Below are positions 14,333 through 16,048 of a stretch of 37,413 nucleotides of DNA, in pieces. The position numbers were made by a program, and so were the translations under genes. The stretch lies in IMG/VR virus record IMGVR_UViG_3300002460_000014, positions 1-37,413 of that record; one strand, 5' to 3'. A model generated the notes under the pieces. It ran no database searches. It worked only from the letters and a program-made list of their open reading frames with translations, and was not told the origin of the DNA. Every line of letters begins with the position of its first letter. The stretch's first letter is position 1. The DNA comes from a virus.

Positions 14333-14733
14333 GTCCTAACGACATAAAAGTTATAAACGAGTTTCCGCCGTTCTTTCAAGATATTATCAAAGCAGGAATG
14401 AAACCCGAACCGACAACGATTTATCCGTTTTCTAATGTTATTTATAACCCAAGTGGTTTAGATATCCCTCAAGACATAATGATTCACGAAGCGGTTCATA
14501 TCAGACAACAAGGCGAGAACCCAGCCGATTGGTGGAAGCGATACCTAACTGATAACCAGTTCAGATTCAATCAAGAACTGGAAGCTAACCAAGAGCAATA
14601 TAAGTTTGTGTGTAAAGTCCTTAAAGACAAAAACCAAAGAGCGAGAGCATTGCTAAAGATAGCGAGAAATATGGCTGGAAAGGTTTATAACTTGAATGTT
14701 AGTGTTAATGAGATAATGAGGATGATAAAATGA
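14329..14733 (+). CDS. hypothetical protein with HExxH motif (MIHEAVHIRQ)
   Basis: 134-aa ORF, ATGA-coupled to terL. Confidence 0.6.
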   Translation: MSPNDIKVINEFPPFFQDIIKAGMKPEPTTIYPFSNVIYNPSGLDIPQDIMIHEAVHIRQQGENPADWWKRYLTDNQFRFNQELEANQEQYKFVCKVLKDKNQRARALLKIARNMAGKVYNLNVSVNEIMRMIK

Positions 14734-14798
14734 ACTATCCCGATGACTTCATAAATAAAGTAATACAGGGCGACTGTCTTGTTATTCGCCGAGAATGA
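14730..14798 (+). pseudogene. 22-codon relic of a beta-class DNA methyltransferase N-terminus
   Basis: [17 protein letters not shown] then VIRRE-stop. It parallels [17 protein letters not shown] at the start of the intact methyltransferase at 15314. Confidence 0.6.
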
Positions 14799-14807
14799 TA
14801 CTATAAT
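14779..14807 (+). promoter_or_regulatory. sigma70-type promoter TTGTTA-N17-TATAAT serving the HNH gene
   Basis: Read directly. The -10 element ends 6 nt before ATG 14814. Confidence 0.5.
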
Positions 14808-14813
14808 AAATAT

Positions 14814-15326
14814 ATGCCAAAAGGTATATATTCAAACCCAAAAGAAAGAGCAGAGAAAATATCTAAAGCATTAAAAACAGGTAAGTTTTTTAACTGTTTA
14901 ATTTGTTGTAGTAAGTTTTGGAGAAAACAATATGCGATTAAAAAAGGGCAGAATAAGTTTTGTTCAAAAGATTGTTATTTCAAATGGCAAAAGGGAAGGA
15001 ATAAAAGTGAGGCGTTTAGAGTAAAATGTAAGGAAGCAAGATTAAGAAAAGCACACCTATATACGATTGATAAAAAAAATAGATTTTGGAGAAATAGCAA
15101 TGAATATAAAGAGTGGAGAAAAAGTGTGTTTAGGAGAGATAACTGGACTTGTAAAAAATGTGGTGCAAGAAGTAAGAAAAACTGTTATGTAAGAATTGAG
15201 GCACACCATATTAAGCCATTTGCCTTATTCCCAGAATTAAGGTTTGTCATAGATAACGGAGTAACACTTTGCAAACCGTGCCATGATAAAGAGCCGAAAG
15301 GTAAAGAAATCTTATGTATAAAATAG
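14814..15326 (+). CDS. HNH homing-type endonuclease
   Basis: NSNEYKEWRKSVFRRDNWTCKKCG...AHHIKPF...IDNGVTLCKPCH. Paralogous to the 22141 ORF. Confidence 0.85.
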   Translation: MPKGIYSNPKERAEKISKALKTGKFFNCLICCSKFWRKQYAIKKGQNKFCSKDCYFKWQKGRNKSEAFRVKCKEARLRKAHLYTIDKKNRFWRNSNEYKEWRKSVFRRDNWTCKKCGARSKKNCYVRIEAHHIKPFALFPELRFVIDNGVTLCKPCHDKEPKGKEILCIK

Positions 15327-16048
15327 AAGATATACTTAACAAAGTTCATAATGCAGATTGCCTTGAGTTTATGAAGCAAATGCCCGATAAATGTGTGGAT
15401 TTGGTTGTTACGAGTCCGCCCTATAATTTAGGAGATTCGCCCTTAGGCGATAGACGAAGGAAAACACTCGGGACGAAATTATATGAAGATTTTACCGACA
15501 AGTTATCTGACGAAGACTATCTAAACTGGACACTAAGTATTATTGGAGAATGTATCAGGATTTCAAGGTATACTTGTTGGAATATCCAACTTGTGAAGGG
15601 AACTCGTTCATTTTTTCCAAAGATTTTCCAAACATACAACGATAACTTGAAGGACGTATTTATATGGGTAAAACAAGCACAGGCAAGTATGCACGCAGAT
15701 AAGGGTATGATGGCAAAAGGATATGAATATGTGCTTATGTTTGGAGATGATAGTTCACAGATGTTCAAATATAATAACTTTCCCGAAAACGGCTATGTTC
15801 CCAATAGGCAGGAATGGTTCAACAAGGATAATGGATTCGGACATAACGCAACATTCCCGAAAGAATTACCGAGTTATTTTGTAAACTACTTTTCAAAGTC
15901 GAACGATATAATCCTTGACCCATTCCTCGGCTCTGGCACAACCGCAGTCGCCGCTAAAATGCTGGGCAGAAACTATATCGGAATTGAGATTAGTGAAAAG
16001 TATTGTAAAATCGCCAACGATAGATTAAGACAGGAGATTTTATTATGA
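15314..16048 (+). CDS. DNA methyltransferase, beta class (N6-adenine or N4-cytosine)
   Basis: Motif [11 protein letters not shown] comes before motif [16 protein letters not shown]. Confidence 0.85.
   Translation: [244 protein letters not shown]

Follow-up and report, generated by a model that had tools for sequence, protein, structure and literature searches.

A probable compact homing-endonuclease cassette at the 5′ end of phage beta-class DNA methyltransferase genes

In the window, which is the whole stretch of 37,413 nucleotides of viral DNA that was analysed, a gene for a 134-aa protein (14329–14733) is followed on the same plus strand by a very short open reading frame, an HNH endonuclease gene and an intact DNA methyltransferase (MTase) gene. 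The short frame consists of 22 codons (14730–14798), and its ATG at 14730 shares the tetranucleotide ATGA with the TGA stop of the upstream gene. Codons 1–17 (14730–14780) form an MTase-like start, here called the relic, and the remainder (14781–14798) is a read-through tail, VIRRE and a stop, made of cassette sequence and not derived from an MTase. The HNH gene (170 aa) lies at 14814–15326, with non-ORF flanks of 33 nt and 38 nt, and the MTase gene (244 aa) at 15314–16048. The original prediction had given the start, the ATGA coupling and the end of the short frame, the complete HNH gene between two copies of an MTase start, and the lengths of both flanks, and all of these were confirmed.

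The downstream gene encodes a full-length beta-class N6/N4 MTase. Its product matches N6_N4_Mtase (PF01555, E 1e-37) over profile positions 1–220 of 221, and motif IV (SPPY, residues 34–37) is N-terminal to motif I (FLGSGTT, near residue 203 and near the C-terminus), which is the beta-class order of (S/D)PPY before FxGSGT. The start of this gene (15314–15364) overlaps the HNH stop by 13 nt and is in frame with the resident MTase body. Fifteen distinct cassette copies share this 13-nt overlap and this type of N-terminus; they are 65–86% identical to the window copy at the nucleotide level, and what is shared may reach as far as about 15400 (codon 29). The MTase body is 80% identical to that of a database MTase, P0002, whose N-terminus differs and which has no HNH gene within the 294 nt of contig upstream. 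These comparisons suggest that the MTase is a chimera of a cassette N-terminus and a resident body, and that the surrogate N-terminus travels with the HNH gene as part of a mobile cassette.

The relic is a genuine MTase N-terminus, as had been proposed. It shares 16 of 17 residues with the database MTase P0010; P0004 begins in a relic-like way (MQWPDDFINKIIQGDCLE), and further database MTases begin similarly. With the intact N-terminus downstream, the relic shares 8 of 17 amino acids, the same value on recomputation as originally reported, and 27 of 51 nucleotides (53%). When scored with a position-specific matrix (PSSM) trained on 71 independent MTase N-termini, the relic reached 40.4 bits and ranked first among the 39,110 12-mers of the whole window in six frames; the intact MTase N-terminus was second (33.3 bits) and the next best 12-mer scored 11.8. 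This similarity is far beyond chance. A profile search of the 22-codon frame had been put forward as a check. The 22-mer by itself matched nothing in Pfam and PHROG profiles, as is expected because the peptide is so short and because the Pfam domain begins only at MTase residue 28, and it is the custom N-terminus matrix that places the frame at the top of the window. MTase similarity ends after DCL, and the tail beyond it varies among loci. The relic would represent the native gene start, pushed aside by an insertion.

The cassette spans about 585 nt (14779–15364) and comprises a promoter, the HNH gene and the surrogate MTase N-terminus. Its promoter begins exactly at the last MTase-derived codon of the relic, with a −35 element TTGTTA (14779–14784), a 17-nt spacer and a −10 element TATAAT (14802–14807) that ends 6 nt before the HNH ATG. 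The sequence had been read in this way before, and the same geometry recurs elsewhere: a promoter geometry of at least 9/12 was found in 35 of 53 non-redundant family loci, compared with 1.5% of 1526 random ATGs. Across the family, the junction is laid out as the Asp-Cys codons, 0–5 nt, and TTGACA-N16/17-TATAAT-N6-ATG. A promoter scan of the window alone yielded 8 promoters against 6.7 expected from shuffled sequence, which is not above expectation; it is only through its conservation across loci, and not through the window scan, that the cassette promoter is credible. It is probably a sigma-70-like promoter, near consensus and conserved in the family, and its geometry predicts a leaderless HNH mRNA. 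At its 3′ end the cassette has no sharp limit, the boundary falling somewhere between codon 17 and codon 37, because the N-terminal motifs of MTases are conserved anyway.

The 170-aa protein belongs to the HNH (beta-beta-alpha-Me) superfamily, PF01844. It exceeds the Pfam HNH gathering score (E 1.2e-7) and carries the catalytic motif and flanking CxxC zinc ligands, with a zinc ribbon. Its homologues form 157 clusters. Among 34 homologues, residues C28, C31, C113, C116, H131, H132, N148, C153, C156 and H157 are invariant, and C50 and C54 are kept in at least 90%. The predicted structure has a model pLDDT of 86, and its HNH core matches the nearest solved structure, GVE2 HNH 5h0m (sequence E 1e-9, TM 0.69 over the target); a Foldseek search of the model against the PDB found nothing past the HNH core. 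The GVE2 protein is a terminase-associated HNH. The nuclease gene is under selection, with a dN/dS of about 0.06–0.25, and its product is presumed to be a homing endonuclease. In two scans, HNH relatives were encoded by 155 viral-contig and 445 metagenome-contig stretches, counts that include more distant HNH families unlinked to MTases; weaker or partial relatives of other families mostly have no adjoining MTase. A scan of GTDB genomes returned just 2 full-length members of the family; both lie on MAG contigs of phage size and so assign no host.

The arrangement seen in the window recurs in a comparison set of about 60 independent loci. In all strong HNH-family loci with sufficient downstream contig, an MTase gene starts between −80 and +35 nt from the HNH stop, and the closest HNH subfamily repeats the 13-nt overlap of the window. 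A truncated MTase N-terminal relic lies upstream in 38 of 49 testable non-redundant loci, a relic being called when its score exceeded the 99th percentile of 980 control windows, and in 38 of 49 loci the junction falls after the GDC(L) codons. Several relics show decaying motifs (GDW, CNC, GGC). In one subclade (L062, L064 and L066 type) the relic is absent or very decayed, and the HNH gene stands just upstream of the MTase start. The other neighbours of the strong family are diverse and include NinG, metallophosphatase and HTH genes. The insertion is recurrent at one conserved site and patchy among close homologues.

Mosaicism between the cassette and the MTase body gives a signature of mobility. 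An N-terminus of the form MYKI..NK[VI]H.ADCL is found before at least 13 different MTase bodies, and mean pairwise identity is 67% for the HNH protein and 77% for the N-terminus, as compared to 32% for the body. Identity of the N-terminus correlates with that of the HNH protein (rho 0.46, p 1e-5, a p-value inflated by the lack of phylogenetic independence among loci), and neither N-terminus and body (rho 0.19) nor HNH and body (rho 0.15) are significantly correlated. An identical HNH protein, P0122, and identical first 29 MTase codons stand ahead of at least 3 different bodies. Of the 120 homologues closest to the L056 MTase (64–90% identical), only 2 have a cassette-type N-terminus. Stages of decay are also seen. 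In L214–216 and L127 the cassette N-terminus is kept and the HNH gene is reduced to its 3′ part, and in L228 and L223 a cassette-type N-terminus is present and the HNH gene is absent. There are therefore cassettes in decay as well as close MTase relatives without a cassette.

The nearest phage relatives of the window, L002 and L003, carry homologues of the upstream 134-aa protein (74% and 64% identical, respectively) and no MTase at all, and their homology to the window stops at the stop codon of the 134-aa gene. Among syntenic relatives retrieved through this protein and TerL, no empty-site allele was found at the window locus, nor was any relative found there with a single MTase starting MNYPDDF, the form expected in the original prediction, or any pair of near-identical genomes of which one has the cassette at precisely this position and the other lacks it. 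A blastn search of 13000–17000 against GenBank phages gave no match. The members of the MTase and HNH protein clusters included no HNH-less variant of this phage, and the 12 contigs carry both genes. Among viral contigs, an MTase-based search returned 2 loci, including L228, and a back-translated 10-residue pattern picked out 4 intact MTases, all from other phages and all non-syntenic.

Taken as a whole, the stretch of the window from 14779 to about 15364 is probably one copy of a compact and widespread homing-endonuclease cassette specialised for the 5′ ends of phage beta-class (N6-adenine/N4-cytosine) MTase genes. As in a free-standing homing endonuclease gene, there is no intron or intein, and the HNH gene has expression signals of its own, namely its ATG and the conserved promoter. 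The original prediction of a free-standing HNH gene that invaded the 5′ end of an MTase is supported by the roughly 60 loci and by the lack of an Rfam intron match, but its second part, in which the downstream N-terminus was a second allele or a recombination scar, needs refining, since this N-terminus belongs to the cassette. According to the proposed mechanism, insertion would sever the native N-terminus and leave the 22-codon stub coupled to the upstream gene, and the MTase would remain intact, with its expression now driven from the cassette. The HNH protein would nick or cut MTase alleles that lack the cassette, within or close to the conserved stretch that encodes ...NKVIxGDCLE, and recombinational repair off a cassette-bearing genome would copy the cassette into the cut allele. 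Cassette-bearing alleles would evade cutting because the insertion divides the site in the relic copy, and because the surrogate copy has a changed one, with Ala, Asn, Asp, Cys or Glu in place of the Gly before Asp-Cys.

A further proposal goes beyond this reading and is offered tentatively. It is possible, although doubtful, that the element represents an undescribed class of phage homing element, a self-contained 5′-end replacement cassette whose HNH protein reads the conserved ...GDCLE coding sequence common to many beta-class MTase families and whose strong leaderless promoter runs each invaded MTase. If this were true, the element would reassort N-termini among unrelated phages and also alter when their anti-restriction methylation takes place, effects from which the host phage could profit besides the element.

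The adjacency of the two genes could also be read in the sense of a co-adapted, restriction-modification-like module that moved as a whole, replaced an earlier MTase and left its 5′ stub behind. The HNH–MTase adjacency is universal in the family, the ORFs overlap or are coupled, and one promoter is likely to serve both genes. However, the same HNH and N-terminus accompany at least 13 unrelated bodies, the bodies are only about 32% identical where the HNH proteins are 67% identical, and different bodies stand behind one identical HNH protein. Furthermore, MTase clades are overwhelmingly HNH-free, and it is the HNH gene that decays while the MTase stays intact. This makes a co-adapted module unlikely. 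A type II restriction-modification pair was likewise rejected, as HNH identity and body identity are uncoupled over the at least 13 bodies. It is very unlikely that the HNH protein is a packaging nuclease of the HK97 gp74 or GVE2 type, belonging with the terminase two genes upstream and only incidentally next to an MTase. In the window the HNH gene does lie about 0.5 kb downstream of TerL, its best solved-structure match is the GVE2 protein, and L007 and L016 carry distant HNH genes (34–38% identical) near a terminase; yet the 2–2.5 kb flanks of the strong family loci are all free of TerL homologues, which turn up solely next to weaker HNH relatives that are not members of the strong family. 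The neighbouring genes are diverse, and what stays constant beside the HNH gene is the MTase 5′ end and its relic. The HNH protein was not assigned to the terminase-associated packaging nucleases, given the missing linkage, though its fold is most like that of the GVE2 enzyme.

Another reading regards 14781–15364 as an intron or a recoding or bypass insert, so that the relic N-terminus would be joined to EFMKQ... in the mature product. Direct reading of the 14780–15365 joint keeps the frame and gives a plausible MTase. Against this, the HNH ORF takes up 88% of the interval, which opens with a conserved promoter; the downstream copy possesses a start codon of its own and a full N-terminus that is conserved from cassette to cassette, and relics elsewhere decay or end at varied stop codons. 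An Rfam search of 14300–16100 gave no family match at E ≤ 10, and the intron reading was dropped because of this result, in agreement with the earlier view that the cassette is not an intron; it is highly improbable. Nor does the gene qualify as a group I intron-encoded HNH of the I-HmuI type, as no Rfam core was found, the only non-ORF sequence 5′ of the ORF is the 33 nt of the promoter, and the 3′ flank is coding. Finally, a chance similarity, or an MTase 5′ end duplicated locally in tandem without any foreign contribution, might be imagined from the relic and surrogate being identical at only 8 of 17 residues, both in AT-rich DNA. The relic, however, is the top 12-mer of the window with 16 of 17 residues in common with P0010, and the surrogate is 65–86% identical to other cassettes in nucleotides and only 53% to the local relic. 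Chance or local duplication is effectively refuted and retains next to no probability.

Free-standing, intronless homing is known from SegF, SegG and MobE of the T-even phages, whose genes adjoin or sit inside their targets and spread by double-strand-break repair with co-conversion of flanking sequence. These genes lie between genes or split them, with neither a replacement gene end nor an N-terminal stub, whereas the window cassette has both. The free-standing homing endonucleases of T-even phages are the subject of a review (PMC2988022). The closest precedents appear to be the fungal mobile endonuclease ORFs (mORFs) and the phage T4 mobA/gene 60 cassette. The mORFs of fungal mitochondria insert together with a foreign gene C-terminus, as in atp6 of Allomyces macrogynus (Paquin et al. 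1994, cited in PMC3630166) and in atp6, atp9, cox2 and nad3 of Glomus (PMC3630166). Both mORFs and the window cassette pair an endonuclease ORF with a duplicate of the end of the target gene; the inserted copy preserves gene function, and the native end persists as a diverged, untranslated relic. They differ in that mORFs act on the 3′ end of mitochondrial respiratory genes and the window cassette on the 5′ end of phage MTase genes, bringing its own promoter, unlike mORFs. The nucleases of mitochondrial mORFs are of the LAGLIDADG or GIY-YIG type, and that of the window is a zinc-ribbon HNH. The window cassette replaces a gene end in mirror image, at the N-terminus, and is a functional analogue of the mORFs, not a homologue.

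In phage T4, the mobA/gene 60 cassette combines an HNH homing endonuclease with a 50-nt translational bypass element (bioRxiv 10.1101/2022.08.31.505936). As in the window, a phage HNH gene comes together with an accessory sequence that makes insertion into a coding gene harmless, and insertion is repeated at one site in one gene family; the mobA accessory, however, is a ribosome-bypass RNA in a split host gene, whereas the window accessory is a spare N-terminus and involves no recoding. Out-of-frame HNH insertions of the ShiLan type occur in actinophage DNA methylases (PMC11855218). Like the proposed window cassette, they are HNH homing elements directed at phage DNA methylase genes, and they involve neither intron nor intein. 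The ShiLan insertion is internal and in frame, is read through by the methylase and has its HNH overprinted in another frame; the window HNH is instead a separate ORF between the relic and the surrogate 5′ end. The spare gene start with its own promoter would be a third strategy for homing into coding genes, besides splicing and translational bypass. The cassette would also explain a common and puzzling mosaicism of phage MTases, in which N-termini mismatch their bodies and small MTase-like stubs lie upstream. For annotation, ORFs of 20–30 codons of this kind would be relics, and the MTase start would lie inside the 3′ end of the HNH gene. New enzymes that nick or cut specific sequences might come from this family.

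The sharp, conserved junction leads to a testable prediction of the target site, and the residue before Asp-Cys gives a hint of immunity. This residue is Gly in 42 of 48 relics and in 10 of 52 surrogate copies (Fisher p 2e-12, likewise inflated by the phylogenetic non-independence of the loci), although Ala-Asp-Cys is also present in natural MTases; the loss of Gly in the surrogates may be a sign that cassette-bearing alleles are protected.

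As judged from sequence, the HNH cassette (about 14779-15364) is probably a gene-end-replacing homing endonuclease element and one copy of a large, sharply defined family. The record in which it lies has direct terminal repeats and is complete (37,413 bp). The small terminase (12742-13152) and the large terminase (TerL, 13088-14332) are followed by a 134-aa gene (14329-14733), a 22-codon ORF (14730-14798), the HNH gene (14814-15326), a beta-class DNA methyltransferase (MTase, 15314-16048) and two family-2 glycosyltransferases (16045-16848 and 16853-17662); a homologue of the portal gene of TerL relatives, which has no Pfam family match, occupies 18811-20646. 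All coordinates in the original prediction are right, including the ATGA overlap and the flanks of 33 and 38 nt. Its central reading, an HNH homing cassette inserted at the 5' end of the MTase gene with a relic left behind, is supported and extended by the recurrence of the layout across loci.

The 22-codon ORF had been taken for a genuine MTase N-terminus, and nearly the same peptide indeed opens several homologues of the intact MTase. The relic (codons 1-17, 14730-14780) is identical at 16 of 17 residues to the start of the homologue P0010, and relic-like N-termini are present in P0004 (MQWPDDFINKIIQGDCLE) and in P0007 and P0014 (MIYPDDFVNKII...). The relic-type start is carried by intact MTases of four viral contigs. 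When all 39,110 12-mers of the whole window in six frames were scored with a position matrix, which was trained on 71 independent MTase N-termini and spans 10 residues before Asp-Cys, the relic came first with 40.4 bits and the functional MTase N-terminus second with 33.3 bits; all others reached at most 11.8.

Homologues of the window HNH protein form 157 clusters of about 170 aa each. They have in common an N-terminal zinc ribbon (C28, C31, C50 and C54, of which C50 and C54 reach at least 90% conservation) and an invariant CxxC...HH...N...CxxCH core. Three homologues (81%, 69% and 67% identical) were examined on their contigs, and 160 further loci from viral and metagenome contigs were added. 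At every strong locus of the HNH family with enough contig, a beta-class MTase ORF starts between -80 and +35 nt from the HNH stop. The 13-nt overlap of the window recurs in the closest subfamily, with the MTase start ATGTATAAAATAG lying within the ...CIK* of the HNH gene. As an internal control, this neighbour is mostly absent at more distant HNH families from the same scans. A truncated MTase N-terminus, called when it outscored 99% of 980 control windows, precedes the HNH gene in 38 of 49 non-redundant testable loci, and some of these relics are visibly decayed (GDW, CNC, GGC, YNGEC).

The left junction is equally regular. Aligned on the HNH ATG, the common layout consists of the Asp-Cys codons of the relic, 0-5 nt, TTGACA, a 16-17-nt spacer, TATAAT, 6 nt and ATG. 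Of 53 non-redundant HNH starts, 35 have a promoter match of at least 9/12 with its -10 element no more than 8 nt from the ATG, as against 1.5% of 1,526 random ATGs in those loci, and the match is perfect (12/12) at 10 loci. In the window, TTGTTA-N17-TATAAT lies at 14779-14807, as first read. The promoter scan of the window is unremarkable alone (8 matches, 6.7 expected); the claim that the HNH gene has its own promoter is credible because the position of this element is conserved across the HNH family. This geometry predicts an HNH mRNA that would be leaderless.

Sequence comparisons indicate that the downstream N-terminus (15314-15364) is part of the cassette and not of the MTase body. The start MYKI(E/K)(D/E)I(I/L/V)N(K/Q)(V/I)H.ADCL precedes at least 13 different bodies, one of which is of the type TSPPFKDEDIPGDYW. 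Over 84 pairs, mean identity is 67% for the HNH protein, 77% for the N-terminus (residues 2-29) and 32% for the body; identity of the N-terminus correlates with that of the HNH protein (rho 0.46, p 1e-5) and not significantly with that of the body (rho 0.19). An identical HNH protein, P0122, together with identical first 29 MTase codons, stands before no fewer than three different bodies. In nucleotide sequence, the 51 nt of the window copy match 15 other cassette copies at 65-86% identity and the local relic at only 53%. Chance likeness and local duplication are excluded by these identities together with the top matrix score of the relic. The homologue P0002 is 80% identical to the window MTase body; its N-terminus is unrelated, and no HNH gene is present in its 294 nt of upstream contig. 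Among the 120 closest homologues of the MTase of locus L056 (64-90% identical), 118 have native N-termini, mostly with Gly-Asp-Cys, and only 2 the cassette type, a patchy distribution as expected of an invasive element. Recombination between conserved N-terminal motifs of tandem MTases could explain how one cassette with the same upstream flank stands before different bodies (L047, L049, L053). Two or more tandem beta-class MTase genes are seen at L059 (68-2093) and L223 (1-1321). At L226 (1247-1900), a relic-type N-terminus is fused to an unrelated body with an NPPF motif, which suggests that shuffling of the N-terminal module also occurs in the absence of an HNH gene.

Immediately before Asp-Cys, Gly occurs in 42 of 48 relics but in only 10 of 52 surrogate copies (Fisher p 2e-12, over loci that are not independent); the latter have Ala in 27 of 52 and otherwise Cys, Asp, Asn, Glu, Ser or Gln. 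We infer nuclease activity of the HNH protein, its target site and homing. The enzyme would recognise the GGN-GAY-TGY-CTN-GA region of intact MTase genes, and cassette-bearing genes would be protected, since their relic has the site in split form and their surrogate start has a changed version of it.

Stages of loss are also represented. At L214-216 and L127 only the last 44-55 HNH codons are left, yet the MTase begins with the cassette N-terminus; L228 and L223 (protein P0025) have this N-terminus with no HNH whatever. Purifying selection acts on intact HNH genes, whose dN/dS against the window copy is 0.06-0.25 (median 0.17), values that are approximate because dS is near saturation. The N-terminus of P0247, a homologue of the L056 MTase, resembles a shortened cassette-type start (MINKVHCSNCLDFMK) and may be the footprint of a lost cassette.

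Several of these features bear on other explanations. An intron or a recoding insert is barely conceivable, given that the 5' flank is a promoter, that the downstream MTase copy opens with a conserved start codon of its own and that relics decay; the original exclusion of an intron is upheld by the lack of any Rfam match at E ≤ 10. It is very improbable that the protein is a packaging nuclease of the terminase type: the terminase-associated GVE2 HNH (5h0m) is the nearest solved structure, but the gene contexts of the strong family are diverse and no TerL homologue occurs in the 2-2.5 kb flanks of any of its loci. The uncoupling of HNH genes from MTase bodies, and the decay of HNH genes beside intact MTases, make a restriction-modification-like pair of the two proteins unlikely.

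For a homing cassette that replaces a gene end, the closest precedent in logic is, by analogy, the fungal mitochondrial mORF. According to PMC3630166, which cites Paquin et al. 1994, these endonuclease ORFs bring along a foreign C-terminus for atp6, atp9, cox2 or nad3 when they insert, and leave the native C-terminus as a relic. The present cassette is the mirror image, acting at the 5' end, and differs in its phage setting, zinc-ribbon HNH and own promoter. In T4 mobA/gene 60, an HNH homing endonuclease is paired with a bypass element (10.1101/2022.08.31.505936). In the ShiLan insertion, an HNH gene is overprinted inside a phage methylase; according to the paper on this insertion, a strong association of HNH endonucleases with methylases is not yet known (PMC11855218). 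No account of the cassette was found in the searchable literature.

The stop codon of the 134-aa gene marks the exact end of homology with the nearest phage relatives, L002 and L003. In other relatives, including L007-L009 and L019-L020, TerL is directly followed by portal; the slot between them is thus variable, and the 134-aa gene, cassette, MTase and two glycosyltransferases of the window (14329-18800) form a variable block. An uninterrupted MNYPDDF... MTase was found at this locus in no genome. After the 134-aa gene, L003 has a 75-aa ORF and L002, the closest relative, a different free-standing HNH gene (1763-2274, 160 aa) with no MTase. The start of this gene, TGTTATAAT-6 nt-ATG, shares the TATAAT-6 nt-ATG geometry of the window cassette. 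This slot (window 14733-14814) behaves as a hot spot for insertions. The structural module of the window contains a second free-standing HNH gene (22141-22764, plus strand; 207 aa, NUMOD3 + HNH), whose ATG is preceded at 6 nt by TAAGAT and whose product is 28% identical to the L002 protein (E 6e-11). A different HNH family, more distantly related, lies directly 3' of MTase genes at L085-L087 and L135-L139 and overlaps them, in the order opposite to that of the window cassette.
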